A stretch of 64,000 nucleotides of DNA from Candidatus Heimdallarchaeota archaeon (GTDB taxonomy: Archaea; Asgardarchaeota; Heimdallarchaeia; Hodarchaeales; Hodarchaeaceae). The translations under genes and the position numbers were made by a program. The stretch lies in NCBI GenBank assembly GCA_019057635.1, contig DXJL01000113.1:6737-70736 (forward strand), in the 5' to 3' direction. Position 1 is the stretch's first letter. Each line of letters begins with the position of its first letter. Shown here in pieces: positions 2,353 through 42,578 of the stretch. The notes below the pieces were generated by a model, which saw only the letters and a list, made by a program, of their open reading frames with translations, searched no databases and was not told the origin of the DNA.

Positions 2353-3147
2353 TTATTTTTTCATAACTTTTTTGTCCGAGACAAGATTTACTCTTTCAGT
2401 TAACGTTATGAATAGTCGATGTAACTTTGTTAGATCTAAATTCTTATTTATTCTGGAATATATACGAATAGAAGGATCTTCTGACGAATCGATAGAAATA
2501 CGTACAACAGAATCACGAATGGCGTATATTTGCTTAAGAAGTGGTTTATCTTTGAGGAAGAAGTCGCCCATACGTTCAGATGTTGCTTTCATTAAAAAGA
2601 ATTGATCTAATAATTCAGAATCAAGTATAACGTCTTTTAACTGAAAAAGTAAGTCTTGATGTTTTTTAATTTGTCCTTCTTCATGATTGGGGATAATTTG
2701 TATTTTTGTTGGTAGTTTCCCTTTTTTTGCATTTCCTTCTAACGCAATGTAGTCATTTGCTCCTGAAAACCATGAGATTATCACAGATAACATTAAATGA
2801 CGCTCTTCCAACGCAAACACGACACGAAAATCTTTGAATGGAATTTTAGATGATTTTTTATATTTAGGAAATAATAGGCCACCATTGGAAGTTATTTGAT
2901 CAGTTACTAAATCATCAAATTCATTAGAAAATATTTCAAGAAGAGCATCCTTTGATACATTGATAATTTTATGATTCTTCCTCCTACCAGACCACAACAG
3001 GTAAAAAGTAAAAAATAGAACTAATCCTGGTCCTAAAAATATTACCATATAATCTAGAAGCCCGTATTGCTCAGATTGAAGAAAGAATTGTCCAATGAAA
3101 AGAAATTTTTCCATAAAAGGGTCGTATATTGCCATTTTGAATCTCAA
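2353..3147 (-). CDS. Hypothetical protein with an N-terminal membrane anchor
   Basis: A hydrophobic helix VIFLGPGLVLFFTFYLLW lies near the N-terminus. No motif was recognised. The ORF is long with a clean frame. Confidence 0.4.
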   Translation of the reverse strand: MRFKMAIYDPFMEKFLFIGQFFLQSEQYGLLDYMVIFLGPGLVLFFTFYLLWSGRRKNHKIINVSKDALLEIFSNEFDDLVTDQITSNGGLLFPKYKKSSKIPFKDFRVVFALEERHLMLSVIISWFSGANDYIALEGNAKKGKLPTKIQIIPNHEEGQIKKHQDLLFQLKDVILDSELLDQFFLMKATSERMGDFFLKDKPLLKQIYAIRDSVVRISIDSSEDPSIRIYSRINKNLDLTKLHRLFITLTERVNLVSDKKVMKK

Positions 3148-3228: not shown

Positions 3229-3801
3229 TCAAGATATATCTAGGTAGCTGGCTATTTCTCTATATTGAAAAATATCACTTTGAGAATTTCCAACGACTTG
3301 AAAAAACTTATATTTGGCGATTCCATCTTCACCAACGTCATTAGGATCAACTACCAGTGCTACTGAAAGAGGTTGAACTAATTGAAAAGAGTATACATGA
3401 GTAGTAATATCAGTTTGTGATAAAAATAATCCATATCCAGGATGTGAATGCCACCAACCCACACAGAATTCTGGACCCGATAATTGATCAAAAACTTGAA
3501 AATCCTCATCAGAAAAAGATACTGAATATTCATCTCCCTGGGTTACATAAATTCCCTTTGATATCATTATTTCTTTTGAGCGAACTTCAATCCCGCTGAG
3601 CAAGCCAATAGCCTCTTTTGGTTTGGCTTCGATAGAATAATTGGTAATTTCTATAATTGTTTGCTGTGATATGGTAACAGAAATTGTCTCTAAACTCAAT
3701 CGAGACATCTCGTTGTTGGCCTGATCTGAATGTAGGCCGTCAATTGATTGGTCTGTTTCGTCCTCATTATCAGAATTTTCAGGGGGATCTTTATTTGTCA
3801 T
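3229..3801 (-). CDS. JAB1/MPN/Mov34 (JAMM) metalloprotease, a putative deubiquitinase of the Rpn11/CSN5 type
   Basis: The JAMM motif is intact: upstream Glu (EAIGLLSG) then HSHPGYGLFLSQTD, which is H-x-H-x7-S-x2-D. There is an acidic N-terminal extension. Confidence 0.85.
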   Translation of the reverse strand: MTNKDPPENSDNEDETDQSIDGLHSDQANNEMSRLSLETISVTISQQTIIEITNYSIEAKPKEAIGLLSGIEVRSKEIMISKGIYVTQGDEYSVSFSDEDFQVFDQLSGPEFCVGWWHSHPGYGLFLSQTDITTHVYSFQLVQPLSVALVVDPNDVGEDGIAKYKFFQVVGNSQSDIFQYREIASYLDIS

Positions 3802-3896: not shown

Positions 3897-4448
3897 CTAA
3901 CTCGTTCCATGCTCTTTTGTCCATTTAACAGCTTTCTCCCAGAAATCATTGAAATTGGACTGCATGGATTTTCCAGCCTCTGGATTGAATGGATCGCCAG
4001 GATCAACGAGGTATTCTGGAAATTCAGAATCTCCTGAACTCTGATAGACATCAAGCATCATTTCGATATGCTCAAATACACTAGGTAGAGTTATAGTCTT
4101 TTTCCATCCACCAAGTTCACCTATATTGTTCCAATTGATTAAACTAAGACAAACATTAGAACCCCATTTCCAACGAGTTTCACCTATAGCAATATTGGGA
4201 TGCCAAATTGGTGTAATAAAATTAACAATTGGAGGTTTGAATGGATATTCAGGTGGTAAATCAACGGTGATTTTCCATTCCCCGTTTTCATACGGAGTGC
4301 CTTCTTTCCCTTTTATTGTAGCAGAGTAGTGATGAAGATCATTATCCACTATTAGCCACTTTATGGTAGCACTTTTTGGGGGATAAATCTTTAGCATTCG
4401 CTTAAATTCTTCCCTTAATCGTCTGGAATGTAGATCAGACATAAGCAA
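3897..4448 (-). CDS. Ubiquitin-conjugating enzyme E2 (UBC fold)
   Basis: PPEYPFKPP, the HPN motif (IWHPNI) and the catalytic Cys context NVCLSLIN are present. Confidence 0.85.
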   Translation of the reverse strand: MLMSDLHSRRLREEFKRMLKIYPPKSATIKWLIVDNDLHHYSATIKGKEGTPYENGEWKITVDLPPEYPFKPPIVNFITPIWHPNIAIGETRWKWGSNVCLSLINWNNIGELGGWKKTITLPSVFEHIEMMLDVYQSSGDSEFPEYLVDPGDPFNPEAGKSMQSNFNDFWEKAVKWTKEHGTS

Positions 4449-4763: not shown

Positions 4764-5552
4764 ATGACTGATATCGAGACAGAAGTTGCCCAGTGTAATG
4801 GATGTGGTGCTCCTCTATTAGGAAACCCTTCTTCTCTTCGTCCCGTTCATTGTGAATATTGTGATTTGACAAACTATCTCAGGAAATCACAGGGAATAGC
4901 TCCTGATGAAAGTTCAGTAAACGAGGAAGTGGAATCTGAACATTATTATCTTTTATATCAAGAATCCCAGAAAATACTGGAAAATTTTCCTGGGGAATTA
5001 GCGGGAGAGGAAGTAGGAAAAATTCGTATTAAAATGCAAGTTGGACAGTACGCATTTCCATTATTGATAGTGCTTGATGATTTACCAGAAAAACCCTTTA
5101 TCGATGGTCCAAATGTTCTTCGAGAAGTTATCAACTGTGAGATTAATGACTTAAATACTATGAAAGATTGGATACCTGGAACAAGTTCGGTATTAGATGT
5201 CTTAGAAGAAATCTACCAGATATCTGAAAATCAACTTCCTCAAAAAATGGAAGGCCCTTCAACGACAAGTGAGTCAAAAAGTACGATTAAAGAAAAAAAT
5301 CCCCTCATACGACAGATCTTGGAAAGTTATGATGCCACGCCAACAAGAAAAGAAATTAAAATTAACTTTTATGCACAAACAGGAGAAGTTATTCCATTCA
5401 CAATCAAAAGAAAAAAGAACTATCCGATAGGTCTCGAAAGTGAAGTTCTTTCGAGGTATCCACTTATCCGCGGACCTTTAGAGGATTATGCGAAAGGTCG
5501 TATTGATCTTATTACTGTGTTGGCCGAAATTGAACGCTTATTCTATGTGTAG
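4764..5552 (+). CDS. N-terminal zinc ribbon plus an E2-variant (UEV/RWD-like) domain protein; a candidate ESCRT-I Vps23/TSG101-like ubiquitin binder
   Basis: CNGCG...CEYCD forms a zinc ribbon. The central region LPEKPFIDGPNV resembles the E2 YPFKPP...HPN region but lacks the HPN motif and the active-site context. Confidence 0.35.
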   Translation: MTDIETEVAQCNGCGAPLLGNPSSLRPVHCEYCDLTNYLRKSQGIAPDESSVNEEVESEHYYLLYQESQKILENFPGELAGEEVGKIRIKMQVGQYAFPLLIVLDDLPEKPFIDGPNVLREVINCEINDLNTMKDWIPGTSSVLDVLEEIYQISENQLPQKMEGPSTTSESKSTIKEKNPLIRQILESYDATPTRKEIKINFYAQTGEVIPFTIKRKKNYPIGLESEVLSRYPLIRGPLEDYAKGRIDLITVLAEIERLFYV

Positions 5553-5574: not shown

Positions 5575-5904
5575 ATGAATAATCGAAAAAAAGATGTTGT
5601 CTGGGACTCAAACGTTAATTCCCAAGGAACAACATCGGATGGTATTGAACGTATGATTAAAGTCCGTTTTAAGGACCCACAACTTCCACCAGATCAAAAC
5701 ATCCGTGAAAAATATATTAACATAAATGGTACAGTTTTTCAAGCAATTACAGCAGCACGTGACGCATTTAATATTCCTGAAGTTGTACCAATCGCACTAC
5801 TGTTTAAAGGTCGAAGAATGAATCCATCAAACAACCTTGTTTCGTACAATATTGAAGATAACGCCCTTCTAATGATAGTACCTGATCAGATAAAAGGGGG
5901 GTAA
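5575..5904 (+). CDS. Ubiquitin-like beta-grasp modifier with a C-terminal Gly-Gly
   Basis: The 109-aa protein ends ...PDQIKGG immediately before the stop codon. Its size and hydrophobic pattern fit a beta-grasp fold. A GAGGT RBS lies 8 nt upstream, and the gene sits directly upstream of E1. Confidence 0.7.
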   Translation: MNNRKKDVVWDSNVNSQGTTSDGIERMIKVRFKDPQLPPDQNIREKYININGTVFQAITAARDAFNIPEVVPIALLFKGRRMNPSNNLVSYNIEDNALLMIVPDQIKGG

Positions 5905-5939: not shown

Positions 5940-7178
5940 ATGAACTCACATCTCCCTTATTCAAAATTTGATCGTCAAGAGCGTCTTTCGATTTGGGACC
6001 AGAGTCTCATTGAAAAAAGTTGTGTGTTAATAATAGGAATAGGAGGAACTGGGGGAGAAGTGGCCAAGAATTTATCTTTACTTGGGGTGGGAAAATTGAT
6101 TTTGGTAGATATGGATACAATCGAATTTTCAAACTTAAACCGCCAACTACTATTTTCAAAAGCAGATATTGGTAAGAATAAAGCAAAGATAGCTAAGAAA
6201 GTAATTAAAAAAAGGTATAATTCCACTTTGAAAATTGAGGCGTATAGTGATCCCATTCAATCACTGCCTTACAGAATTTTTGAGGAAGCTGACATAATTG
6301 CTGGGTGTGTTGATAACTTTCTCGCACGACAATTTATTAATGAAATTGTTATAGAATTATGTTTACCGTTAATCGATTCTGCAACCGATGGTTATTTTGG
6401 CCAGGTACAAAGTGTAAATCCAAGGAAAAACGCTTGTCTGGCTTGCGATTTTCCACCTCCTCCAGAAGAGACTCGCCTTCTATCTGCACCCTGTACTCTT
6501 GTTGGAACTCCAAGAATCAAAGAACATTGTGCATGGAAGGCCCTTTATGAATTTCATACTATGAATGATCGGGAACCTGATGAAAATTCCCCCGATGATG
6601 TTCAGGAGATTACAAACCTAGCAAATAAATTCGCTACCGATCACCAATTCCCACTCTTTGATACCAAAGAGATTATTCAACTTGTATTATACCACGTACC
6701 TAGTCTAATTACTGTTAATGCGGTAACTAGTGGAATTCAATCGCAAGAAATCATAAAAACTCTATTTATCAACAAAATGAAGCTTTTTAAAAAAAAGGAT
6801 CAGAAGGAATTCAAATCTCTTATCCGTGCACAACGATTCAGAATTCCTGATTTAACTATTTATTCTGCACTAACAGGAAATATTAGTTCTTTTAATCTTA
6901 TCAATGATCCAGATTGTTTGGTGTGTGGTAATTCTTCAATTTACCACCAAACTCCAGTAACAATAAATGTAAACCCAAAGTTGAAATGCAAAACGATTTT
7001 TACAATATTAAAGCGTAGATTCAAGAAAAATTATATAGGTTTTAGAGGAAATTTCATTATTCCAGCGGAAGCATTAATAGAAAATATTCTTCAAGACGGG
7101 GATAGAATAACCGTTAGTTCACTAGATGATGATAAAGAAAAAAGAATAAGAATTAAATTTAAAAAGAAGAAGGGTTAA
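5940..7178 (+). CDS. E1-like ubiquitin-activating enzyme (ThiF/MoeB/UBA fold)
   Basis: The nucleotide-binding GIGGTGGEVAKNL and the motif LVDMDTIEFSNLNRQ are present. There are CxxC pairs (CLACDF), a Cys-containing segment APCTLVGTP, and a roughly 150-aa C-terminal extension. Confidence 0.85.
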   Translation: MNSHLPYSKFDRQERLSIWDQSLIEKSCVLIIGIGGTGGEVAKNLSLLGVGKLILVDMDTIEFSNLNRQLLFSKADIGKNKAKIAKKVIKKRYNSTLKIEAYSDPIQSLPYRIFEEADIIAGCVDNFLARQFINEIVIELCLPLIDSATDGYFGQVQSVNPRKNACLACDFPPPPEETRLLSAPCTLVGTPRIKEHCAWKALYEFHTMNDREPDENSPDDVQEITNLANKFATDHQFPLFDTKEIIQLVLYHVPSLITVNAVTSGIQSQEIIKTLFINKMKLFKKKDQKEFKSLIRAQRFRIPDLTIYSALTGNISSFNLINDPDCLVCGNSSIYHQTPVTINVNPKLKCKTIFTILKRRFKKNYIGFRGNFIIPAEALIENILQDGDRITVSSLDDDKEKRIRIKFKKKKG

Positions 7179-7507
7179 TCTTCATCAGTGGAAGGGTAAA
7201 AAATACGTACCTTTCTTCTAAGCTTTGGTTTTATCGGTTGAATGGATGGATTAAGATAAGGGTCTTTCAGTCCAAAATCTTGAATTTTTTCTTTCGTAAA
7301 TTTGCTGTAAATTTGACTAGATATTCGATCACGAGAAGTTTGACGGGATTGGGGTTTTTTGGCACTAAATTTTCTTGGTGAAGGTACAGTTAATCGAATG
7401 GTCGTTCGTTTTCCACATTTAGGGCAATACCACGCACCTGTGACAGGTTGTTCATTTGAACGAGGAACATATCCACAAAATTGACATTTAAATTCAGATT
7501 CTCTCAT
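7175..7507 (-). CDS. Small zinc-ribbon protein with a basic tail
   Basis: CQFCG...CPKCG is followed by a Lys/Arg-rich C-terminus. It overlaps the E1 stop by 4 bp. Confidence 0.35.
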   Translation of the reverse strand: MRESEFKCQFCGYVPRSNEQPVTGAWYCPKCGKRTTIRLTVPSPRKFSAKKPQSRQTSRDRISSQIYSKFTKEKIQDFGLKDPYLNPSIQPIKPKLRRKVRIFYPSTDED

Positions 7508-7657: not shown

Positions 7658-9418
7658 TTGTGCATCATGTTAAGACGAAAGAAGAAGAAATGGCTAGAAG
7701 CAGTTTCTACGGCACAATCACCAATACGGATAGAGGATTTTTCTTCTTCTACTGATAAAATGAATGTTGTCGCCTTTTTATATGAAAAAATCCAACAACA
7801 ACAATTGGATGGGCTTTTAGACTATAATCATATCTATTTCATTCCGAAATCACATATCTACAAAAAAATTCAACAATTTCTAGACGCACAAGGAATGGTT
7901 GATATATGTGAACTAATAGACCTAATGAATTTACCAGGTAATTTGCTTGAGCCTATTATCCATGATTACGTGCAAGAAATAGACGGTTTTTTTGATTTAA
8001 TCAAACGAAAATTCTTTACACGATCAGGAGCTATCTCATTCATTACTAAACTTCTTGGTAACACTCCCACGCATGATCTTGAATATTTACTAAATCAGAT
8101 ATACTGGACAGATCACCAATTAGAAGCTGTATTAGACTTAATGGCGCAAAAAGATCTATTCAGGGGTTATATTGACCCTATCAAACAACGTTTATACAAC
8201 TTCAAATCCCTTCGTTTTTCCCTTACTACTCCGAATGAAGGATCGATGAGAGCCCTATCCCGATTCATAAATGCATCATTCCAAATTTCTTCAGAAGTTT
8301 CTTTAATAGACATTTCTCGCCTTACAACGCTACCACAGGATGATCCATTGAAATTTCTTGAACTCTTTGAGAATCGTTTGAGTTATATTAGTTCTAAGGA
8401 TAGAGATTATATATACTCTACAATCGATATTGTTTCGCAAATTATATGGGATATTTATGTGTATGAAGAGATACCTTTGGATTTCTGGGTAGCCAGGTTT
8501 GATCTTGGGTTTGAAGCCTTATCTGATCTATTATTAGTATTAAATGAAAGTTTTCGTGGTAGCTTATCAAAAAAGTTTCTAAAAGGTATTTCTTTGATTC
8601 ATTGGTTCGAACAAGGAATTGATATTGAAGGATTAGCTACAAAAATAAATATAGACGTCTTGAGATTGTTAAAAGAGATAACAACTATAGCCCTTCGTTT
8701 AGAACTTCGTTTGGTGGCAGGTGATTCAATAAATCCGTTTCTAGTGAAAGGAATCAGAGATTTAGAGATATTTTGTCAAATTGATACTTCCTCATATTCC
8801 AATCCTTCAGTATACTTTGAGTGCCAAAATTGTAGGAGGGTAATGTGCTCAAACTGCAGAAAAATTGATAGCACCCATGAATGTCCGTTTTGTGGAAATA
8901 TTTCTGCGTTTATTATCGATCTACCACGGAATTGTCCTACTTGCCAATTGACCTATGCTTATTCATATAATCTTGAAACAACTGAGGAGTGCTATTTCTG
9001 TGAACAAGGTCCATTGAAATCTGGATGGTTTACTTCAGAGCAAAAACCCTTGAGTCTTACCGCTACTGAAAATCAATTTGTTAATTTCATCCAGAATCAT
9101 CATTCTCCAATAATTCCTTTACAACAAATTATTGATTTTGTTAGTCAATCATCAGAAGAAGTCATAAAAATACTAGAAAAACTCATTACTCACAAAATCA
9201 TTGCGGGAACAATTAGCATTCAAAAATTGCAATTGAAAATTAAAAAAGCTTATGTTTCGTTTGAGTGTGTGGTTTGTAAATGGGTTAAAACCGATAAAAA
9301 GAAGTTTATCTGTAATTTGTGTAACGGAGAAGTCTGTGAAAATTGTTATCAAGGGATGGAGTCGGTTGGAATGGTTGATTGTCCAGAATGTGGATCATCT
9401 CTTGAGTTAGTAGAATAA
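7658..9418 (+). CDS. Large alpha-helical protein with a C-terminal cluster of zinc-ribbon/treble-clef modules; a candidate E3-like or ubiquitin-binding component
   Basis: The C-terminal 200 aa contain at least five CxxC pairs: CQNC-CSNC-CPFC, CPTC-CYFC and CVVC-x10-CNLC-CENC-CPEC. The C-x2-C-x10-C-x2-C spacing matches the RanBP2/NZF type. Confidence 0.4.
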   Translation: MCIMLRRKKKKWLEAVSTAQSPIRIEDFSSSTDKMNVVAFLYEKIQQQQLDGLLDYNHIYFIPKSHIYKKIQQFLDAQGMVDICELIDLMNLPGNLLEPIIHDYVQEIDGFFDLIKRKFFTRSGAISFITKLLGNTPTHDLEYLLNQIYWTDHQLEAVLDLMAQKDLFRGYIDPIKQRLYNFKSLRFSLTTPNEGSMRALSRFINASFQISSEVSLIDISRLTTLPQDDPLKFLELFENRLSYISSKDRDYIYSTIDIVSQIIWDIYVYEEIPLDFWVARFDLGFEALSDLLLVLNESFRGSLSKKFLKGISLIHWFEQGIDIEGLATKINIDVLRLLKEITTIALRLELRLVAGDSINPFLVKGIRDLEIFCQIDTSSYSNPSVYFECQNCRRVMCSNCRKIDSTHECPFCGNISAFIIDLPRNCPTCQLTYAYSYNLETTEECYFCEQGPLKSGWFTSEQKPLSLTATENQFVNFIQNHHSPIIPLQQIIDFVSQSSEEVIKILEKLITHKIIAGTISIQKLQLKIKKAYVSFECVVCKWVKTDKKKFICNLCNGEVCENCYQGMESVGMVDCPECGSSLELVE

Positions 9419-9426
9419 ATTAGTTA

Positions 9427-10320
9427 TTATGACGATTTTTCGGCTTTTATTTTTGCGAGTTTTGATGAATATTTATCGGCTATTTCTTTATATCGTTTTT
9501 CAGAGATTTTACCTCCTAAAAACATCTCATCAGCCTGTTCGAGCATTAATTCGAATTTTTTAATTTTTTCTGAAACCTCATCAAATTTATTTCGCTCTTC
9601 TGCGAGTTCCTGTTGAGTTTCAATAATTTGCTTTTCAATCTCATACGTAAGTAAGGTTTCGTACTCTTCAGGCACTTTAAATCCACCAATATCTAATCCT
9701 ACTAGTTCTAGGCCCCATCGAGAGCTTTCAGGACCTAATTCAGATCTTGTTTGAATTTCTAAGCTTCTTCTGTCTTTTAATAACTCAGGTACAGTGTAAC
9801 GAGTCATAACATGTTTAACAGCTGCTATCACCGTCTGTTTCACCCAATTTTTAAGCTCATTTCCACTATAATACTGTTTATGGGAGACTACGTTCATGAT
9901 AAAATTCCTTGGATTCACAATCCGCATCCGAGAAATTCCCCAACATCCCACCATAACATTGTCTGAGGTGTAAATACCAGGCGTTCCCCATTTAATGATA
10001 AATTCACGTTTTGTAACCCATATAATTTCACTTCCAGGATGCTTCGCTGTTTTTTCCAATTGATAAATTCCACTCCCAGCAACTCCAACTAGCACCCCTG
10101 ACTGTAACAACACGGCATTTTCTGGTTCTTTTACAATAAAGCCGTCAATTTTTCTAAAGTTATCATTTTCTTCTGCTTTCACTCTATGAATTAACGATTC
10201 ACCAAGTGAATCATCAAATTTTGAGCTTAGAATCGCTTTTCCCTTGAATTTCTTGGTACCTATGTGAATTGTATCCCCTATTTTACGGAATAGTCCACCA
10301 AATTTGTCTGTTTCCGCCAT
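9427..10320 (-). CDS. SPFH/band-7 (stomatin/prohibitin-like) domain protein with a C-terminal coiled coil
   Basis: TSDNVMVGCWGISRMRIVNPRNF and NELKNWVKQTVIAAVKHVMTRYTVPELLKDRRSLEI follow the band-7 core pattern. The C-terminus is Lys/Glu-rich and helical. Confidence 0.5.
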   Translation of the reverse strand: MAETDKFGGLFRKIGDTIHIGTKKFKGKAILSSKFDDSLGESLIHRVKAEENDNFRKIDGFIVKEPENAVLLQSGVLVGVAGSGIYQLEKTAKHPGSEIIWVTKREFIIKWGTPGIYTSDNVMVGCWGISRMRIVNPRNFIMNVVSHKQYYSGNELKNWVKQTVIAAVKHVMTRYTVPELLKDRRSLEIQTRSELGPESSRWGLELVGLDIGGFKVPEEYETLLTYEIEKQIIETQQELAEERNKFDEVSEKIKKFELMLEQADEMFLGGKISEKRYKEIADKYSSKLAKIKAEKSS

Positions 10321-10329
10321 CGCTTCTAC

Positions 10330-11331
10330 CTACCAATCTTCATCTCCATATAACCCTGGAAAGTAATACTGATCTCCTGAATCAAGTGATGACACTTTTC
10401 GAGCAACTTTTTGATTGACAAGACTATCTAAGACCCTCATTACTCGTTGTTGATCCCATTTAGTATGAATCATAACTTCCTCAAATGTTACATAGCCTTT
10501 ATCTATTGCTAGATTAAATATGTTCCGGGCATCTTTTCCAAGAGCTACTGGTGTAAACTCGACAATTTTTATGCCAGATTGTTTGGAAACTCCTTCAATT
10601 AACGATTGTTTAGTTAGTTGTTTACAGGCCTTTTCTAAATCTTTCAATGAAAACTTGATATCTGGAACTTGATTTTTCAGAGAAGTATACAAGTTTGCCA
10701 TTGAAATATAACCACCTGAACTTGCTCTAAGAGTTTTTCCTTGTTCAAGGATTAAATCAGCAAGATTGTCAACAAATTTCCCTTTCCCAAATATTTTTGG
10801 CTTTTTTGTTGCATCTAACGCGGTTATTGTTAGTGTACGCCCTTCTTTTCGGAGTAACTCTCTCTCTAATTGCTGAATGCGGGAATCATATTTCTTCTGT
10901 AAATTCTTAATTCCCTCGGTTGATACTGGAGCTCCGTTAGCCAACTTATTTTGAACTTGAACTACCTCTTCTAATCGCGTTATCTGTTCACGAAGATCTA
11001 ACAACTCACTGCGGAGATCTAATTCTTTATTCCCAAATTCAAGATCATCAATTAATAGTTTAGACCGTTCTGTTATTTGGTCACAAAGAATAGTTGCCAG
11101 TAGCTGCGCAACACGGATTTCCCCACTTTCCTTTAAATTGGCCATTTTATTATCAGAGTAGAGTATTATATCAGGCACAGTTTCGCTTAAATACCTAATC
11201 TCTTCAAATTGTGTATAAAATTTAATTACTAGATCTGATATGTGTTTAGCTTTCATTGCAGCAGTATTACTTAATTGATTTAGCGCATTACTTGCAGTTT
11301 GAAATTTTTCTCTCAAAATAAGGGTCACCAC
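10330..11331 (-). CDS. ESCRT-II subunit Vps22/EAP30 homologue (tandem winged helix with an N-terminal coiled coil)
   Basis: SGGYISMANLYTSLKNQ...SLKDLEKACKQL...IKIVEF...GYVTFEEV...WDQQRVMRVLDSLV...YYFPGLY aligns with the EAP30/Vps22 pattern GG-I-L-EL...DL-RA-KKL...GYVT...W...RA-VL-L...YW-P-LF. Confidence 0.75.
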   Translation of the reverse strand: MVTLILREKFQTASNALNQLSNTAAMKAKHISDLVIKFYTQFEEIRYLSETVPDIILYSDNKMANLKESGEIRVAQLLATILCDQITERSKLLIDDLEFGNKELDLRSELLDLREQITRLEEVVQVQNKLANGAPVSTEGIKNLQKKYDSRIQQLERELLRKEGRTLTITALDATKKPKIFGKGKFVDNLADLILEQGKTLRASSGGYISMANLYTSLKNQVPDIKFSLKDLEKACKQLTKQSLIEGVSKQSGIKIVEFTPVALGKDARNIFNLAIDKGYVTFEEVMIHTKWDQQRVMRVLDSLVNQKVARKVSSLDSGDQYYFPGLYGDEDW

Positions 11332-15777: not shown

Positions 15778-16302
15778 TTGGAAAAAGACAACCAGGAGAT
15801 TGCTAGCTTGATAGATCCACGAAGGTTTGACAGTGTACTCAGTAAAATCATAAAAAGTGAACCCGGTATCCGAAAAATTATTCTAGTCGACCGGACTGGT
15901 CTTACGATCGCTCATGTTTCCAAGTTTAGTTATGTATCTGTTGATGTTGATGGCATTGGAGCAATTGCTTCAGCTGTATTTATGGCATCAGCAGAACAAG
16001 GATCTAATCTGACAATTGGCGGATTGGATATTGTCACTTCAGAATTCGATACTGGTAAAATATTCGCAAGCGCTTGTGGCCGAGGAATTTTGACAATAAT
16101 CTCAGATGCTGAGGTTAATATCGGAATGATCCGCTTACTCATGAGAAAGGCTAATGAGGAACTTAGCTCAATCCTTGATGAGTTTTTAGCTGGACAACCA
16201 TCTCGAGCCTTCTCAGGAATTGCCTCTGAAGCACCTGAAGTTCGTACTGGGCTCGAAAAAGATGAACTTGAAGCCGCGCTACGAGAGCTTGAAAAATTCT
16301 AA
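15778..16302 (+). CDS. Roadblock/LC7 (MglB-like) domain protein
   Basis: IRKIILVDRTGLTIAHV...DGIGAIASAVFMASAEQGSNLTIGGLDIV follows the Robl/LC7 alpha-beta-alpha pattern. Confidence 0.7.
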   Translation: MEKDNQEIASLIDPRRFDSVLSKIIKSEPGIRKIILVDRTGLTIAHVSKFSYVSVDVDGIGAIASAVFMASAEQGSNLTIGGLDIVTSEFDTGKIFASACGRGILTIISDAEVNIGMIRLLMRKANEELSSILDEFLAGQPSRAFSGIASEAPEVRTGLEKDELEAALRELEKF

Positions 16303-16344
16303 TCTAGTTTCTTATCCTCCTAGTCAGTGAAGGAGCCAAATTGA

Positions 16345-16926
16345 TTGCGAAAAGACGCAGAAGGTCGTCATAGATTTAAAATAGTATTTTATGGTCCCTC
16401 TCTCTGTGGAAAAACAACAACTCTTGGTTGGCTTTATCATAAGGTTGATGGTTTAGAAAAGGGGAAATTTACTCAACTAGCTGATCCACATGGACGCACG
16501 CTTTTTTTTGATTTTGCACCCATGCAAGCTACTACAGGAGTGGTTTTTGACGTTTACACTACAGCAGGACAGGAAAGACATAAACACCAGCGTAAAATAG
16601 TTATTCAGGGGGTAGATGGCATCTTATTTGTTGTTGATTCTTCATCAGATCAGCTTCAAGAAAATATTGCTTCTTTCGAGGAGCTTACAACTCATTTGGG
16701 GGAAGATTTAGGCACCACAATTCCTTTAGTTATTGCTTTGAACAAACGAGATGCTGAGGATGCACTACCAAGATCAGAGCTAATTGAAAAATTAAAATTA
16801 TCCAATTATCCAATTTATGAAACTGTGGCTACTACGGGTATTGGGATAAAGCGTGCTTTCCAATCATTAGCCCGTGAAATATTAATGATACAATTATACG
16901 GAACTAAGACATCTCAGAATAATTAG
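16345..16926 (+). CDS. Ras-superfamily small GTPase (MglA/Rag-like)
   Basis: G1 GPSLCGKTT, G3-like VYTTAGQER (T in place of D, as in MglA) and G4 NKRD are present. Roadblock genes flank it. Confidence 0.75.
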   Translation: MRKDAEGRHRFKIVFYGPSLCGKTTTLGWLYHKVDGLEKGKFTQLADPHGRTLFFDFAPMQATTGVVFDVYTTAGQERHKHQRKIVIQGVDGILFVVDSSSDQLQENIASFEELTTHLGEDLGTTIPLVIALNKRDAEDALPRSELIEKLKLSNYPIYETVATTGIGIKRAFQSLAREILMIQLYGTKTSQNN

Positions 16927-17198
16927 CTTTTTTTCTGAATAATTACAGTCCATCCTCTAGTTTCTATTACCTCAGAGTTATTGTTTAATATAGCTCTCAA
17001 GGCTGAAACTGCTTCTTGACGTGAATTGAAAGGAGAATTTTTTAGAAACTTTATTTTAATGGTTTTATCCTTTTTTAATCGGTTATTAAGTTCATTAAAA
17101 AAGGAATCAGATAAACCATTTTTTCCTACTTGTAAACTTGGCGACTCTGCTCTGATATTCCGTACGTTTGGTTGATGTAACTTGGACATGTATTTCAA
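16923..17198 (-). CDS. YhbY/CRM-domain RNA-binding protein
   Basis: LQVGKNGLSDSFFNELNNRLKKDKTIKIKFLKNSPFNSRQEA matches the YhbY/CRS1 fold signature (IGK-G-...ELIKVK-L). Confidence 0.65.
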   Translation of the reverse strand: MKYMSKLHQPNVRNIRAESPSLQVGKNGLSDSFFNELNNRLKKDKTIKIKFLKNSPFNSRQEAVSALRAILNNNSEVIETRGWTVIIQKKS

Positions 17199-17442
17199 AA
17201 CCTCTTACTTTGGAGCGTTTTGTTAAGTTAATCTTATAGTTTTGCTATCTAAACCTATAGTTCGATCTAATTTGTTATGATACAATAGAAGGAATTTCTC
17301 CTCGTAATATCTACATATTAGGATCTTATATTACTTTGAGTAGAAAGAATGATGTAAGTAGGTTTATTCTCCTTGTACACCTTCTCATTCGGAAAAATCT
17401 CGGAATTAGAAATATATTTATAGGAGATAAGCTTAAATTCAC

Positions 17443-17895
17443 ATGTCTAAGCAAAGATATGTGCGGAAATTTGTTTACAAGGGTGTAAGAATGTACATTC
17501 CCGATACTGATGCAGATCTACAAATGCATAAAGAAATAGTCGAAGTCTTGGAAGCATTTGTTAGTAAATTGCCAGCTATAGACTTTGCTAGCGTTGTTAG
17601 TCTTGAAGGACTTCCCATTTCCTCTTGGCCTCCTAAACTTCCAGGTGATTTGGATGATGTGCGAATAGCCGCAATGACTGCGGCAATTCTTAGTTTAGGC
17701 GAGAGAGCTGTCATGGAAACGGGGAAAGGAGAAATGACACGGATTCTTGTCGAAGGAAACGATGGTTACCTTATTTCAGTTCAATCTGGTAGTAAAGCAG
17801 TATTAACTGCTTCAGCAAACAGATCGGTGAAATTGGGCTTAATTTTTCTTGATATGAAACAGGCTGCAAAGAAAGTCGGTGAAATACTGGGTTAG
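17443..17895 (+). CDS. Roadblock/LC7 domain protein, second copy
   Basis: The pattern FASVVSLEGLPISS...AAMTAAILSLGERA...ILVEGNDGYLIS is Robl/LC7-like. Confidence 0.6.
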   Translation: MSKQRYVRKFVYKGVRMYIPDTDADLQMHKEIVEVLEAFVSKLPAIDFASVVSLEGLPISSWPPKLPGDLDDVRIAAMTAAILSLGERAVMETGKGEMTRILVEGNDGYLISVQSGSKAVLTASANRSVKLGLIFLDMKQAAKKVGEILG

Positions 17896-30313: not shown

Positions 30314-31987
30314 CTAGCGTAGAATATAGCGTACAAGTTGCTTAATATCTAAGGGAATCCCTTCTTTATTCCCTAATATGGTATTAGTGTAAGATCCGAT
30401 TAGATCTGACCATTCCCATCTATCCAATTGGTATAGTTCTTCTTCTGGGGATTCTATCACTTTGATGATCCGTCTATCAACATAATCATTCAATCGTCTT
30501 TGTAAATCCAATCTCTTTTCTGCAGGAATCCCTAGGATTTGGCTAATCTTTTCCTTTGATAGTGGTTGGTTGGTTCCCAGAAGAAAGAGGATCCAATTAT
30601 CAGGAGACGCTAACAACGCTTTTACCACAGGACGGAGGTCTATATCCATCCCAACTGAAACACCACCTGCTTTCATCGTGATTTCTTTGGTAACTTTGTA
30701 GCTTAGCTCTTTACCCCCATCACCTTGCTCTTTTAAATTCACAAGGCGTTCTTTTAACAGATTAACTTCCTCACGAAGATTTGCAATGTCAGATGTTATT
30801 ACCATACTGTCAGAGCTTTCTTCTAAAATTTCAGGTGAAACTGTTCCCCCTTCTCTCAACAGATTCTTTAATTTTTCATTTTCTTGTCTTGTATCGATTA
30901 AAATTCTTTCAAATTCTAATAATTTCTCAGATAAGTCTTCAGCGAGTCGTTCATCAATTGCCCTGGACCAAGAAAGTTTTTCGTGAGTACTTTGTGTTGT
31001 ACCTACAAGCTCTACTTCCAAATCCTCTTTGATTGCTTCTAATTCCTTTATACGAGCTTCTTGGCTCAATATTTTGTCTTTCAGCCTGTTTACTATCGAT
31101 GCAGTATTTAAAATGACCTTGTTATCATCCACATTTGGAATTCGATAAACGGGTACTACACTTCCCCTATCCCAAATAGATGCGGTTTCATACCTAACCC
31201 CCAACTTCTCAATCAACTTAGCAATTTCACGAGTTTCATCATTATATCTGAACATGAAAAGATTTTCCTCATCACCCTCAAACCTGTACAATCGAGAAAA
31301 TTTCAACCAGATTGTGACAAAATCCAAAACATCTTGTTCATCTTTACATTTGGAGACAGAAAGGATTATTTGGGGAAAACTAGCTTGGAATTCTCCAGTA
31401 AACGCTTTAACAACCGCAGAGCAAAGCTGCACGGGAATTTTAACATAAAAACCTCGTTGATTCTGTGCAAGTTCGCCATCAGGACACAAGTTCACATCAA
31501 AAACAGAATCAAATGTTTCGATAAAACTCTCAATTTTTCCTCTTTGATCAGTTTGGTAGGTACCGGTCTGAAATACATTCTTGGATAGTGTAAATAATCC
31601 GAGAAGCTTAGCTAAAGAATTGCTCTTAGTTTTTACGGGAAGTTTTATTGGAAGCTGGCTCTTTTTATTCCCTATACTAGTGACTGTGAAAGAGGTCATA
31701 AAAAGTTCGCGTTCATTTTCAACTAATATGCGAAGTGTTGACAGAGGAATGGTCATTTTTGGATTTGAACGGTATCGTGACCATTGTGTTCGACTAACAA
31801 CTGGACCCAACGCTTTTTGCATTCTACTATGTTGGAATACGAATCGACGCCCAGCTAATGAAAGATTTACTCTGGCCTCGTCTGGAAAGTTCTTTAATGA
31901 CAACCATTCCTCGATTTCATGATCCATATCAAGTCTTGATCGTCTCTTAAAGACTTCTTCATGTAATTCTAATTTTTCGGACTCCAA
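30314..31987 (-). CDS. Hypothetical 557-aa protein with a central coiled coil and a C-terminal winged-helix-like domain
   Basis: The ORF is long. The C-terminal segment is wH-like (ISQILGIPAEKRLDLQRRLNDYVDRRIIKV). No catalytic motif was recognised. Confidence 0.3.
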   Translation of the reverse strand: MESEKLELHEEVFKRRSRLDMDHEIEEWLSLKNFPDEARVNLSLAGRRFVFQHSRMQKALGPVVSRTQWSRYRSNPKMTIPLSTLRILVENERELFMTSFTVTSIGNKKSQLPIKLPVKTKSNSLAKLLGLFTLSKNVFQTGTYQTDQRGKIESFIETFDSVFDVNLCPDGELAQNQRGFYVKIPVQLCSAVVKAFTGEFQASFPQIILSVSKCKDEQDVLDFVTIWLKFSRLYRFEGDEENLFMFRYNDETREIAKLIEKLGVRYETASIWDRGSVVPVYRIPNVDDNKVILNTASIVNRLKDKILSQEARIKELEAIKEDLEVELVGTTQSTHEKLSWSRAIDERLAEDLSEKLLEFERILIDTRQENEKLKNLLREGGTVSPEILEESSDSMVITSDIANLREEVNLLKERLVNLKEQGDGGKELSYKVTKEITMKAGGVSVGMDIDLRPVVKALLASPDNWILFLLGTNQPLSKEKISQILGIPAEKRLDLQRRLNDYVDRRIIKVIESPEEELYQLDRWEWSDLIGSYTNTILGNKEGIPLDIKQLVRYILR

Positions 31988-32172: not shown

Positions 32173-32949
32173 ATGATGATTGATTTTTACTTGGCACTAT
32201 TAGATCCCATTTTTGACTTATTCTTGCTCATCTGGATATCATTAAATGATATCCTTATCGATCTTGTTGAGACTTTTGGAGTTTGGGGGCTTATATTCGC
32301 CATGGTTTTTCAATCCGTTGTTGCTCCAATTATATCTGAAGCAGTACTGACTGCAGCAGGATTTGGGTTTTATAATGCCTATGGGAACGAAGGTTTATTT
32401 TTAGCTTTTATTGGAGGGTTTATTGGTTCTCTCCTTGGAGCAGTAATCGCATTTTATATTGCACGGGGAGTACAATCATTATTGAGAAAGAAGATAGTTG
32501 ATGTTTACGGAACTAGAAAAGAGGACTCAGATTCTGAACTTAATCAAAGGAATCCACGATTAACACGATTAGCCAATTTCCTTGCTCGGTTTATTGATGA
32601 AGATTCCGAATACTTTTTTGATTTAATTGAAAATCATGGTTTTCTATTTGTATTAATTGGACGCCTAGCTCCATTTATCCCCTTTGATGCTGTTTCTTAT
32701 GGGGCTGGCTTTACTCGGATAAGTTTCTGGAATTATTTTATCCCAACAATTATTGGAACGATTCCCAGGGTCTTATTTTATATTTATTTGGGTGCAGAGT
32801 TAGTTTCATGGGCTGAAGAAGATTTAAATATTTTCTTTCTAATCCTTTTAGCCTTTGCCCTAATAATATTCAGTTTATATATGATGAGTATGCGTTTCCT
32901 AAAAAATAGGATCGGAAGAAAACGGGATATTGATAAATCTCATAACTAA
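32173..32949 (+). CDS. DedA/VTT-domain (Tvp38/TMEM41/VMP1-like) membrane protein
   Basis: It is a multi-TM protein. GRLAPFIPFDAVSYGAGFTRISFWNYF matches the VTT/DedA re-entrant loop signature. Confidence 0.5.
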   Translation: MMIDFYLALLDPIFDLFLLIWISLNDILIDLVETFGVWGLIFAMVFQSVVAPIISEAVLTAAGFGFYNAYGNEGLFLAFIGGFIGSLLGAVIAFYIARGVQSLLRKKIVDVYGTRKEDSDSELNQRNPRLTRLANFLARFIDEDSEYFFDLIENHGFLFVLIGRLAPFIPFDAVSYGAGFTRISFWNYFIPTIIGTIPRVLFYIYLGAELVSWAEEDLNIFFLILLAFALIIFSLYMMSMRFLKNRIGRKRDIDKSHN

Positions 32950-39531: not shown

Positions 39532-40137
39532 TTGACCAATCTAGATGAATTCTTTGGGGATAATCAATCCCAAAATGTTGATGCACTAATCGCAGTAACC
39601 AAAAAATTCTTTGTGTTTGTTTCACAATTAGCAGAAATTGTCGATGATCTGGAAAGAAAGTATGCTGAACTGAGTAGTAGAATTAGTCAGATTTCCCAAC
39701 AACCTTCGGCTCCACCTCAGCTCTCTGCTCCAGGATTAACCTCTTCACCCCCTGATTCTCAACCAATTGCTCCATCAGTTGGTCCTTCCCCACCAACCGC
39801 GCCTCCACCAAGCTTACCCACTCCACCAGCATTTCCAACTCCTCCATCGCCAGTACAAGCTCAACCATCAGCAGTACCTACACCCGTTTCCGCGAACGCT
39901 CCCCCACAGCCTGCTGGATCCATGCCATCACCATCTAGTCTTCCACCCTTACCTGGACAATCACCTGCCCCTCCATCACCAGGTTTAGCGCCACCTACCG
40001 TAGGTGGACAAATGGGAGGTGCACGGCCACCTACGCCTCAGGCTCATCCATCCCCAATGAGTTTGAAAGCTCAAATGAATATGGAATTAAAGGAAGCTTT
40101 TTCTCGAATACGTAAGGGATGGGATGAAGAGAAATAG
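39532..40137 (+). CDS. Proline-rich low-complexity protein with conserved-looking N- and C-terminal helical segments
   Basis: The central roughly 120 aa are about 35% Pro (PSAPPQLSAPGLTSSPPDSQPIAPSVGPSPPTAPPPSLPTPPAFPTPPSPV...). The DNA is locally GC-rich. Both ends are structured. Confidence 0.5.
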   Translation: MTNLDEFFGDNQSQNVDALIAVTKKFFVFVSQLAEIVDDLERKYAELSSRISQISQQPSAPPQLSAPGLTSSPPDSQPIAPSVGPSPPTAPPPSLPTPPAFPTPPSPVQAQPSAVPTPVSANAPPQPAGSMPSPSSLPPLPGQSPAPPSPGLAPPTVGGQMGGARPPTPQAHPSPMSLKAQMNMELKEAFSRIRKGWDEEK

Positions 40138-41972: not shown

Positions 41973-42578
41973 ATGTGGGCTGTATCTAAAAGGTCTCAAC
42001 TTGCTAGAAAGATAATTATCAGCTTTGTTTTTGCTATCCTCTGCTTTAATTATTTATCAGTGCAGGTTAAGGCATCTCCATCAAAAACAACAAATGTTTC
42101 TAACACATATCCTAGCTTATTTGTTACTAAAGTTGTTGATCTTACAGAAGTTACATTAAATGATTCATTTGTTGTAACGATTACGATTAGGAATATAGGT
42201 AATAGCACGGCATATAATGTTACCTTTATTGATACTTTAAATGCTCCTTGGGTTTTTGACGTGGCTGGTTTGACAAAAATATCTTACAGCTGGATTGAAC
42301 CTAATCAAACACGTATATTTAGTTATATAGTTACTGCCCTATCCTTAGGAGAGTTTCAACTTCATTCTGCACGAGTTTACTACCATATATCAGATCAAAC
42401 CGATACCGAGTTCCTAGCTTTTAGTAATTCACTGGATATTGCTGTAACTAAGGCAGAGGAAGATCTTTCGTTGGCAGACCTCAATTCTGCTATAACCTTC
42501 TTACTTATTCTATTTATTCTCAACACAATTCTTACATTACGATTTGTAGCACCTAAGTTAAATCGAAAGAAACCTTAA
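41973..42578 (+). CDS. Secreted or surface protein with a signal peptide, a CARDB/DUF11-like beta-sandwich and a C-terminal TM anchor
   Basis: There are N-terminal and C-terminal hydrophobic segments. VVTITIRNIGNSTAYNVTFID resembles the CARDB pattern, and N-x-T/S sequons are present. Confidence 0.4.
   Translation: MWAVSKRSQLARKIIISFVFAILCFNYLSVQVKASPSKTTNVSNTYPSLFVTKVVDLTEVTLNDSFVVTITIRNIGNSTAYNVTFIDTLNAPWVFDVAGLTKISYSWIEPNQTRIFSYIVTALSLGEFQLHSARVYYHISDQTDTEFLAFSNSLDIAVTKAEEDLSLADLNSAITFLLILFILNTILTLRFVAPKLNRKKP

Follow-up and report, generated by a model that had tools for sequence, protein, structure and literature searches.

Which gene product supplies the E3-like component of this Hodarchaeales ubiquitin-type gene cluster, and do the SPFH and ESCRT-II genes beside it belong to the same system? 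The window, a stretch of 64,000 nucleotides, encodes a JAB/MPN deubiquitinase-like protein (positions 3229..3801, minus strand; Pfam JAB 38.9 bits, Prok-JAB 27 bits), a UBC-type E2 (3897..4448, minus strand; Pfam UQ_con 86 bits), a ubiquitin-like protein, or Ubl, with a C-terminal Gly-Gly (5575..5904, plus strand; Pfam Rad60-SLD 25.1 bits, ubiquitin 19.3 bits; last residues QIKGG) and a ThiF-type E1 (5940..7178, plus strand; Pfam ThiF 169.7 bits). Judged by sequence, the E1 is of the canonical ubiquitin/SUMO/NEDD8-activating type, its best PDB matches being SAE2, UBA1 and UBA3 at 100–115 bits, with UBA5 at 64 bits; the E2 matches UBE2K, Ubc1 and UBE2T, and UFC1 is absent among the 60 PDB matches listed. 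The initial annotation singled out four further ORFs, all of which are present at the coordinates it gave, and saw no RING-type E3 otherwise in the locus. Indeed, neither the ORF list nor Pfam reveals a small RING E3 there, a component encoded in other Asgard clusters (bioRxiv 10.1101/2023.07.25.550441).

The best candidate for the missing component, in the capacity of an E3 or an adaptor, would be the large zinc-rich protein encoded at 7667..9418 on the plus strand. Although its ORF can also be read from a TTG codon at 7658, which yields the 586 aa reported initially, the homologues measure 582–585 aa and an identical database protein 583 aa, so the true start is the ATG at 7667 and the product has 583 aa. 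The same candidate, as E3 or ubiquitin receptor, had been put forward by the initial annotation. That most of the protein is winged-helix and UFL1-like in character escaped that annotation; the proposal is strengthened by this finding. The N-terminal half is a UFL1-like scaffold: an N-terminal helix (aa 2–14) with an invariant Trp9 precedes a tandem winged-helix array (aa 21–363; 7727..8755, plus strand), delineated from the DSSP pattern of the model and HMMER alignments to UFL1, in which a short first unit is followed by five full winged-helix domains. A seventh winged helix, PCI/DDRGK1-like, occupies aa 466–525 (9062..9241, plus strand). AF2 modelled the protein with confidence (pLDDT 88, pTM 0.76), and the top seven Foldseek matches in the PDB are UFL1 chains (E=3e-10 to 1e-3), other winged-helix arrays (TFIIIC, CSN, Vps22, SelB) appearing only at E-values of at least 4e-3. 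The sequence profile of the family likewise retrieves UFL1 chains from the PDB (E=4e-7 to 4e-6) and no other winged-helix-array family, HMMER alignments reach UFL1 residues 20–234, and Pfam E3_UFM1_ligase is detected in 27 of the 46 family members at E<=0.1 (best 3e-6).

Zinc-binding modules, as the initial annotation recognized, are abundant in the protein. It contains nine CxxC motifs and one CxxD, of which all 18 cysteines and D373 are invariant in 46 homologues of 41–77% identity, a constancy far beyond chance, and these residues presumably bind zinc. Zinc finger 1 (aa 364–412; 8756..8902, plus strand; C370-x2-D373-x12-C-x2-C-x4-C-x2-C-x8-C-x2-C) is the most conserved segment, with a mean column conservation of 0.85, against 0.82 for the zinc ribbon and 0.55–0.68 for the other domains. 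The C4 zinc ribbon (aa 413–450; 8903..9016, plus strand; C423-x2-C426-x15-C442-x2-C445) keeps its four cysteines even in relatives at 18–27% identity. Zinc finger 2 (aa 526–583; 9242..9415, plus strand; C-x2-C-x11-C-x2-C-x4-C-x2-C-x11-C-x2-C) is homologous to finger 1 (hhalign 93%, E=3.2e-7), with the ligands in register, and a distant homologue has Cys where finger 1 has Asp.

Finger 2 has a ZZ/RING-type cross-brace fold, featuring C-x-[VI]-C, a helix after ligand 6 and C-P-x-C. The fingers resemble both the ZZ fingers of p62/SQSTM1, Nbr1, KCMF1 and HERC2 and the C4C4 RINGs of CNOT4, TFIIH p44 and MAT1, which share the eight cross-brace-spaced ligands, the beta-hairpin, the helix after ligand 6 and the C-P-x-C last pair. 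However, none of the RING, ZZ and B-box Pfam models reaches its cut-off in the 583-aa protein, finger 2 uses Cys exclusively as ligands and lacks the two His that close a ZZ domain, and in the Hodarchaeales proteins the second ligand of finger 1 is Asp. The last ligand of finger 2 is followed by Gly, where many active RINGs have an Arg/Lys ‘linchpin’. The initial annotation had perceived an NZF/RanBP2 finger with the spacing C-x2-C-x10-C-x2-C, but the measured spacings (x12, x4, x8, x13 and x15 in the central cluster; x11, x4 and x11 in the C-terminal one) include no such module. Although NZF/RanBP2 fingers, as in Npl4 and Vps36, also have four Cys in two CxxC pairs, here the spacing is x11, not x10, the W-x-C and T-F signatures are missing, and a second set of four Cys is interspersed with the first, the two together forming a single eight-Cys cross-brace domain; the NZF reading was accordingly rejected. 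Nor did the protein model as generic rubredoxin-like ribbons, and it is retained in the syntenic loci of relatives.

Eukaryotic UFL1 is thus the closest known counterpart by both sequence profile and structure, sharing the N-terminal helix, the short first winged helix and the co-linear array, and it, too, acts alongside a ubiquitin-like conjugation system. The winged helix resembling that of its partner DDRGK1 is in our protein part of the same chain. Nevertheless, UFL1 is a pure scaffold E3 devoid of zinc fingers, whereas the window protein carries a zinc ribbon in addition to its two ZZ/RING fingers; it lacks the C-terminal half of UFL1 (583 versus ~790 aa), falls below the Pfam E3_UFM1_ligase cut-off (19.0 versus 23.2 bits) and is encoded with a UBA1/SAE2-type E1, a UBC-type E2 and a Gly-Gly Ubl rather than UBA5, UFC1 and UFM1. 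UFL1-like proteins have already been reported in Asgard archaea (Picchianti et al. 2023, PMC10183829), probably referring to a ~790-aa ‘PCI/DUF2042 domain-containing’ family that combines zinc ribbons, DDRGK, E3_UFM1_ligase and PCI domains with an often VPS28-like C-terminus (for instance, Lokiarchaeum ossiferum NEF87_003698). This family also occurs in Hodarchaeota, bears cysteine-rich modules and is homologous to the 583-aa family over a triple winged-helix region (hhalign 95.7%, E=9.5e-9), but it is separate from ours: its scores for DDRGK and E3_UFM1_ligase exceed the Pfam cut-offs, it has no C-terminal ZZ/RING fingers and it is far more widespread, being found in Loki-, Thor-, Hermod- and Hod-labelled genomes. 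Ubiquitin linkage appears specific to the paralogue described here, because no ubiquitin genes adjoin the ~790-aa family in the two genomes checked. We found no description in the literature of a zinc-finger-bearing, ubiquitin-linked family of UFL1-like paralogues.

The gene order JAB-E2-p262-Ubl-E1-ZnR-UFL1like-SPFH-EAP30 (ZnR denoting a small zinc-ribbon protein) is identical in ~20 species-level Hodarchaeales genomes. This is weak evidence of function, since the synteny also spans unrelated housekeeping genes (ThrRS, GNAT, aIF2-alpha, GINS). By contrast, in the distant lineage C the genes surrounding the UFL1-like gene are entirely different and differently ordered, yet it directly adjoins Ubl, JAB and E2, with E1 within 5 kb, which further strengthens the candidacy of the zinc-rich protein; one lineage C paralogue is without finger 2.

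The 110-aa small zinc-ribbon protein (7175..7507, minus strand) is conserved in Hodarchaeales and in a third lineage, B, and carries a conserved C-terminal motif, P-K-x-R-x-K-I-R-L-F. As noted initially, its ORF overlaps the end of the E1 gene; the overlap is of 4 nt and the orientation convergent. The gene always adjoins the UFL1-like gene in both groups, lying divergent from it in Hodarchaeales and directly downstream on the same strand in lineage B. On the other side, the 297-aa SPFH/Band-7 protein (9427..10320, minus strand) was correctly assigned (Pfam Band_7 61.3 bits, Band_7_1 48.2 bits). Like flotillin, erlin, stomatin and HflK/C, it has a helical tail C-terminal to the Band_7 domain, but its similarity to the solved members is very weak, flotillin-2 being the nearest (E=0.002), and its hydropathy shows no transmembrane or hairpin segment at the usual threshold (maximum KD19 1.41).

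The SPFH gene follows the EAP30 gene, in the same orientation, after a gap of 9 nt, and the two therefore probably form one operon. The latter (10330..11331, minus strand) encodes a long-form ESCRT-II Vps22/EAP30 homologue of 333 aa from GTG, and its identity, proposed from the sequence motifs, is borne out by Pfam EAP30 (41.7 bits, cut-off 26.8). All 72 orthologues, 328–333 aa in length, contain PF04157, and that of B3_Heim is 99% identical. A helical extension of ~170 aa precedes the tandem winged-helix core (~aa 175–325), and in a search of the PDB with the family profile residues 174–325 align with human SNF8/Vps22 (E=3.4e-13); yeast Vps22 is matched as well (E=3e-4), but neither Vps36 nor Vps25. 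The alignment with SNF8 takes in the GG-I..L, GYVT and terminal Y-x-x-P-x-L[FY] positions on which the initial assignment relied. The N-terminal ‘coiled coil’, in contrast, amounts to a Pro/Gly-poor extension, which makes the N-terminus ~85–90 residues longer than that of human Vps22 or the 27.9-kDa Heimdall AB_125 protein. That ubiquitin and ESCRT genes, Vps22 among them, lie together in Heimdall genomes, of which B3_Heim is one, has already been published, as has an Asgard Vps22 (Hatano et al. 2022, PMC9192718). Here, however, the partner gene of EAP30 is SPFH, and not Vps25, ESCRT-III or Vps4.

SPFH scaffolds are known to organize E3 ligases and proteases, as erlin1/2 do with RNF170 and HflK/C with FtsH. 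We tentatively regard the Hodarchaeales locus as a conserved extension of the ubiquitin locus, a reading to which we give slightly less than even weight, in which the 583-aa protein would act in the adjacent canonical E1-E2-Ubl-JAB cascade as an E3-like component of the scaffold type. The UFL1-like array could serve as a docking platform, whereas the two ZZ/RING fingers and the zinc ribbon might recruit the E2~Ubl conjugate or recognize a substrate or ubiquitin end; E2 or ubiquitin binding and ligase activity are predictions of this reading. Its probable partners would be the small zinc-ribbon protein, the long-form Vps22 and the SPFH protein resembling flotillin, a combination that would couple ubiquitylation with ESCRT-II or a membrane-associated scaffold. 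A partnership of the SPFH protein with the E3-like protein is suggested by gene order, and a physical complex with it or with Vps22 is conceivable.

The protein could instead be a reader or receptor, conjugation being left to E1 and E2 alone or to an E3 encoded elsewhere; its ZZ-like fingers would recognize protein N-termini (degrons) or ubiquitin or Ubl ends, and the winged-helix array would pass marked cargo to the SPFH and Vps22 partners. We consider this rather unlikely. The motif [YF]-x-C-x2-C-x3-[VI]-C-x2-C-[YF] does resemble the consensus of the ZZ core, the linchpin is absent and Vps22, a subunit of the ESCRT-II cargo pathway, is encoded nearby. But the last ligands, a Cys-x2-Cys pair after an 11-residue loop in the form C-P-x-C, are typical of RINGs, RING domains equal ZZ in Z score, Pfam ZZ reaches E<=0.1 in just 2 of the 46 members, and no ubiquitin-binding motif was identified in the 583-aa protein. 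Counting more generally against an E3-like role, winged helices and zinc fingers are commonly combined in nucleic-acid-binding proteins. Distinctly unlikely, in our view, is a nucleic-acid or ribosome factor akin to TFIIIC, SelB, RPC34 or TFIIE, or a UFL1-like 60S binder, adjacent to ubiquitin genes through inherited order: UFL1 is ~7 orders of magnitude ahead of the nucleic-acid-binding arrays in Foldseek E-value, the presence of TFIIIC and SelB among the matches notwithstanding, and is the sole such family found by sequence profile. The titles of PDB entries 8ohd and 8qfc do place eukaryotic UFL1 on the 60S subunit, and the Hodarchaeales synteny runs across genes of translation and replication (aIF2-alpha, Nop10, S27e, GINS); the Ubl/JAB/E2 adjacency nevertheless recurs in lineage C amid other genes, whereas the ~790-aa family without these fingers is also without ubiquitin neighbours.

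It appears similarly improbable that the Vps22 homologue, the SPFH protein and the zinc-rich protein are functionally independent neighbours, Vps22 serving only in canonical ESCRT-II with Vps25 from elsewhere, the SPFH protein acting as a general membrane scaffold and the zinc-rich protein having an unrelated role. Genes for Vps25, Vps28, ESCRT-III and Vps4 are found nowhere in the 64-kb window, so the canonical partners of Vps22 are encoded elsewhere, and lineage C retains the UFL1-like gene with no SPFH or EAP30 gene nearby. Against independence stand the tight spacing of the EAP30 and SPFH genes and the layout in lineage B, where, despite a UFL1-like gene that runs opposite to its Hodarchaeales orientation and E1/Ubl genes shifted by ~7 kb, the EAP30, SPFH, UFL1-like and zinc-ribbon genes form an operon-like, co-directional series with spacers of 12–30 nt or, between the SPFH and UFL1-like genes, an overlap of 13 nt.

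The ubiquitin-type genes of the Hodarchaeales window, the GC content of which is low (~36%), lie in a block in which every ORF listed by the initial annotation was recovered. Two Arf-like GTPases (1205-2330, +) are followed by a single-TM protein without assigned function (2353-3147, -), a JAB/MPN protein (3229-3801, -), a UBC-type E2 (3897-4448, -), p262, a conserved 262-aa Zn-ribbon protein also without assigned function (4764-5552, +), a ubiquitin-like protein (Ubl) with a Gly-Gly end (5575-5904, +), a ThiF-type E1 (5940-7178, +), a 110-aa Zn-ribbon protein (ZnR; 7175-7507, -), a large zinc-rich protein (+, ending at 9418), an SPFH protein (9427-10320, -) and an EAP30 protein (10330-11331, -), beyond which lie GNAT, aIF2-alpha and GINS genes. 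In the closely related genome B3_Heim (contig NJBF01000001), the counterparts of the EAP30 and large zinc-rich proteins are 99% and 97% identical, respectively. Clustering of ubiquitin and ESCRT genes in Heimdall genomes, with B3_Heim among those plotted, has been described by Hatano et al. (2022; PMC9192718), who mention neither a Band-7 nor a zinc protein.

The large zinc-rich protein is indeed present but, rather than the 586 residues counted from position 7658, it comprises 583, its true start being the ATG at 7667 (7667-9418). The sequence contains nine CxxC motifs and one CxxD, and all 18 Cys of the former together with Asp373 of the latter are invariant in 46 homologues (41-77% identity). 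A confident AlphaFold2 model (46-sequence alignment; pLDDT 88, pTM 0.76) begins with a helix (aa 2-14) carrying the invariant Trp9 and a short first winged-helix unit, continues through five complete winged helices to aa 363 and a beta-rich zinc region (aa 364-450), and ends with a seventh winged helix (aa 466-525) and a zinc domain (aa 526-583). For the N-terminal array, eukaryotic UFL1 emerges as the relative from three independent comparisons. The family sequence profile retrieved four UFL1 constructs from PDB (E=4e-7 to 4e-6) in co-linear alignments, with residues 22-103 and 64-169 of the query corresponding to UFL1 20-102 and 123-234; the best seven Foldseek matches in PDB were all UFL1 chains (E=3e-10, ~340-370 aligned columns), with other winged-helix arrays (TFIIIC, CSN, Vps22, SelB) following from E=4e-3; and the Pfam family E3_UFM1_ligase (PF09743) was matched by 27 of the 46 members at E<=0.1 (best 3e-6), the protein of the window itself scoring below the cut-off (19.0 bits, E=0.0012, vs 23.2). 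Among known structures, the modelled co-linear array is most similar to UFL1. The seventh winged helix matches PCI in 38/46 members (best 1.6e-8) and, weakly, the winged helix of DDRGK1.

The C-terminal 58 residues (finger 2) read C-x2-C-x11-C-x2-C-x4-C-x2-C-x11-C-x2-C, with a C-x-[VI]-C motif, a helix starting from ligands 5/6 and a C-P-x-C pair. The eight ligands conform to the RING spacing C-x2-C-x(9-39)-C-x(1-3)-[CH]-x(2-4)-C-x2-C-x(4-48)-C-x2-C and, in the model, take up a cross-brace fold. The initial annotation had seen an NZF/RanBP2 module here; this reading is excluded by spacing and fold, since the loop is x11 instead of x10, the four Cys are interleaved in an eight-Cys domain and a T-F motif is lacking. 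No curated RING model is matched above its cut-off, the best being zf-RING_5 (E=2.4e-5) and zf-RING_4 (E=1.2e-4) with isolated domains, and the linchpin position, where many active RING domains carry Arg or Lys, is occupied by Gly. For the protein of the window, every family in the per-member comparison falls below its cut-off, and across members the scores of many zinc-finger families are similar. Because the sequence models are undecided among RING, B-box, ZZ, C1 and double zinc ribbon, all below cut-off, we refer to a ZZ/RING-type cross-brace finger. Finger 1 (aa 364-412) is homologous to finger 2, with every ligand in register (hhalign 93%, E=3.2e-7); as second ligand it has Asp in Hodarchaeales and Cys in one distant homologue, and it is followed by a C4 ribbon (aa 413-450). 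Mean column conservation amounts to 0.85 for finger 1 and 0.82 for the ribbon, compared with 0.55-0.68 for the other domains, which locates the most constrained function of the protein in this by far most conserved region.

An exhaustive search of representative sequences with the 583-family profile recovered only ~8 full-length clusters and, at E ~5e-4, one further protein (P0208; contig L032, 870-3233). The latter is a member of a different Asgard family, widespread and ~790 aa in size, whose annotation reads ‘PCI/DUF2042 domain-containing’ (relatives P0219-P0337); its proteins come from genomes with Loki- (including Lokiarchaeum ossiferum), Thor-, Hermod- and Hodarchaeota labels. P0208 exceeds the Pfam cut-offs for DDRGK, E3_UFM1_ligase and PCI; among the members listed, precomputed matches include PCI in all and E3_UFM1_ligase plus DDRGK in nearly all, and a VPS28 C-terminal match in about one third (P0208, 29.4 bits vs a cut-off of 24.5). 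It is probably this family that was detected by Picchianti et al. (2023; PMC10183829). Three winged helices are homologous between the two families (hhalign 95.7%, E=9.5e-9), and the 583 family is a distinct paralogue equipped with ZZ/RING fingers. It is not the Asgard UFL1 orthologue, because the same clade also has a separate family in which the DDRGK and E3_UFM1_ligase matches are significant. Neither ubiquitin nor ESCRT genes neighbour the ~790-aa gene in the two genomes checked. In the ~790-aa proteins, N-terminal Zn ribbons are joined to DDRGK, a winged-helix array of the E3_UFM1_ligase type and a winged helix of the PCI type; a single chain holds parts resembling both UFL1 and DDRGK1, to which about one third of members add a tail resembling ESCRT-I, and this architecture merits a separate study. 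Two relatives of the 583 family were also encountered. A 552-aa protein (P0142; contig L007, 121-1779) has finger 2 and a central zinc module that is reduced, as well as an N-terminal transmembrane helix recalling the ER anchor of DDRGK1. A 376-aa Hodarchaeales paralogue (P0151; contig L035, 8001-9131) consists of two repeats of a winged helix plus a cross-brace finger, suggesting that this combination is the evolutionary module.

Both neighbours downstream of the zinc-rich protein belong to the families named by the initial annotation. The EAP30 protein matches PF04157 with 41.7 bits (curated cut-off 26.8), a domain also carried by all 70 full-length homologues, and a 25-orthologue profile aligns its tandem winged-helix core with human SNF8 (E=3.4e-13, aa 174-325) and yeast Vps22 (E=3e-4) in PDB; the GG-I..L, GYVT and C-terminal Y..P.L[FY] positions are reproduced in the alignment to human Vps22. 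The same search yielded no match to Vps36 or Vps25 at E<=1, and by sequence the protein appears closer to Vps22 than to Vps36. Each Asgard genome has one Vps22/36-like gene, which groups with Vps22, according to Hatano et al. (2022; PMC9192718). Residue 90 of human Vps22 corresponds to residue 175 here, so that the N-terminal helical part, a putative coiled coil according to the initial annotation, is ~85 residues longer. Asgard Vps22 genes are usually linked to those for Vps25, ESCRT-III and Vps4 (Hatano et al., 2022; PMC9192718); no Vps25, Vps28, Snf7 (ESCRT-III) or Vps4 domain was found in ORFs of at least 110 aa across the 64-kb window. The SPFH protein matches Band_7 (PF01145; 61.3 bits vs 23.6) and Band_7_1 (48.2 bits vs 24); in a hydropathy scan for a membrane anchor or hairpin, its highest 19-residue Kyte-Doolittle mean was 1.41 (aa 70-88).

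The cascade next door is of the ubiquitin type. The nearest relatives of the E1 are SAE2/UBA1/UBA3 (100-115 bits, vs 64 bits for UBA5), the E2 is UBC-type, with UBE2K, Ubc1 and UBE2T the closest among the PDB matches listed, and the Ubl matches the Pfam families Rad60-SLD and ubiquitin but not Ufm1. A UFM1-type cascade with UBA5, UFC1 and UFM1 partners was accordingly rejected.

Since complete Hodarchaeales gene order and Hodarchaeales-level identities were found on five contigs labelled Promethearchaeota, Hermodarchaeota or Thorarchaeota (L018, L020, L021, L022 and L029), submitter taxon names in these MAG sets are unreliable, and the loci were therefore grouped as lineages A, B and C rather than as named classes. 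In lineage A (Hodarchaeales), the order Arf-Arf-TM-JAB-E2-p262-Ubl-E1-ZnR-UFL1-like-SPFH-EAP30-GNAT-aIF2-alpha-GINS is invariant across ~20 genomes counted at species level, among them three chromosomes that are closed or nearly so. Lineage B (contigs L005, L006 and L031) encodes UFL1-like proteins with 24-25% identity (aIF2-alpha, 41-42%); the UFL1-like gene is inverted and forms a co-directional, tightly spaced unit with the EAP30, SPFH and small Zn-ribbon genes, overlapping the SPFH gene by 13 nt, with E1, Ubl and p262 ~7 kb off. In lineage C (contigs L003, L004 and L008, labelled Thorarchaeota), the identity is 26-27% and the flanking genes are unrelated; the Ubl, JAB and E2 genes directly adjoin the UFL1-like gene, E1 lies <5 kb away in L008, and a second paralogue without finger 2 is located beside the UFL1-like gene in L003, whereas SPFH and EAP30 are not near it. 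The Ubl genes of L003 (1330-1608) and L008 (1936-2250) extend beyond Gly-Gly by one residue (GGV) or six (GGIRLHLS); judging by these ends, the products are predicted pro-forms needing processing, with JAB and E2 encoded adjacently. Thorarchaeota seemingly lack true ubiquitin homologues (Hatano et al., 2022; PMC9192718), and the label of these two contigs may be wrong.

Taken alone, the block order of lineage A is weak functional evidence because housekeeping genes share the block, and the genes are possibly mere neighbours without functional coupling. Comparison of the lineages indicates that the linkage to ubiquitin genes recurs in A and C and that to SPFH-EAP30 in A and B, the small Zn-ribbon gene accompanying the UFL1-like gene in A and B. 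The evidence best supports a reading in which the 583-aa protein serves the ubiquitin cascade encoded next door as an E3-like component of the scaffold type or as an adaptor, with ZnR, the SPFH scaffold and the long-form Vps22 as its probable partners. Its folds, its homology, the invariance of its ligands and its gene linkage are established; beyond this, it would bind zinc as well as E2, Ubl or substrate, and might participate in catalysis and complex formation. The foremost alternative casts the protein as a reader or receptor of the ZZ type. The cross-brace fold of the modelled finger superimposes on ZZ domains (PF00569); the last two ligands, expected to be His in ZZ, are the Cys of C-P-x-C, and only 2/46 members match Pfam ZZ (best E=0.0036). 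A binder of nucleic acids or ribosomes is another possibility; in the profile search against PDB, no other winged-helix family approached the significance of UFL1, the next being the Pyrococcus winged-helix regulator PF0095 at E=0.05. If the 583-aa protein were a winged-helix/zinc-finger protein of unrelated function, the locus would be an ordinary one, because Vps22 beside ubiquitin genes has been published.

The E3-like interpretation bears on what is missing from the locus. In other Asgard clusters, a small RING E3 ubiquitylates UEV-Vps23 (2023 preprint, bioRxiv 10.1101/2023.07.25.550441); no such gene is present in this Hodarchaeales ubiquitin locus, and the 583-aa protein represents a concrete, clonable candidate E3 or adaptor. 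The findings are in part known, namely, Vps22 beside ubiquitin genes and UFL1-like proteins in Asgard archaea, and in part new, in that a UFL1-like protein bearing RING/ZZ fingers is linked to ubiquitin genes and paired with SPFH and Vps22; no earlier description of the zinc-finger UFL1-like family or its linkage was found in the literature searched. The gene order hints that ubiquitylation, an SPFH scaffold and ESCRT-II Vps22 acted together before eukaryogenesis, and the protein may bridge ubiquitin-type and UFM1-type ligases in evolution. Eme and colleagues reportedly inferred in 2023 that Hodarchaeales are the closest archaeal relatives of eukaryotes. A far-reaching and, in our estimate, improbable extension would be that the UFL1-type scaffold was first part of a ubiquitin E3 with RING/ZZ fingers in those Asgard archaea from which eukaryotes arose, used with canonical E1, E2 and ubiquitin and physically coupled to SPFH and ESCRT-II Vps22, and that the eukaryotic UFMylation ligase descends from this ubiquitin-ESCRT-linked E3, the ancestral arrangement having been kept in Hodarchaeales. 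DDRGK- and UFL1-like domains are fused to a Vps28-like domain in related Asgard proteins.

Several further genes of the window deserve mention. The single-TM protein (264 aa, predicted helix at aa 34-52, without family match) is encoded directly downstream of JAB in every Hodarchaeales locus. In Hodarchaeales, the p262 gene is invariably located between those for E2 and Ubl, and in lineage B it has stayed next to Ubl and E1; its product displays an invariant N-terminal C-x2-C...C-x2-C ribbon and two conserved regions downstream. That p262 might be a hidden RING or UEV was rejected, as no Pfam or PDB sequence match was obtained even with a 13-sequence profile, and NCBIfam and PADLOC gave none either. 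More generally, none of the seven proteins tried matched NCBIfam, and an anti-phage defence system was dismissed upon the lack of significant PADLOC matches. In ZnR, a basic, Ser-rich linker precedes a strongly conserved C-terminal motif, G-[FYL]-K-E-P-Y-I-N-P ... P-K-x-R-x-K-I-R-L-F-[YF]-K-K, reminiscent of the short linear or strand-addition motifs that engage partners. ORFs of 557, 201 and 229 aa (30314-31987, -; 39532-40137, +; 43172-43861, -) have no Pfam match at E<=0.001. Eukaryote-signature genes are abundant (1205-2330, 15778-17895, 32173-32949, 40154-41104 and 41973-42578) and include, besides the tandem Arf-like GTPase pair (1205-2330) adjoining the ubiquitin cluster, those for a Ras/Arf-like GTPase flanked by two Roadblock/LC7 proteins, a VTT-domain (VMP1/TMEM41-like) protein, a Get3/ArsA ATPase and a TRAP-beta-like protein.
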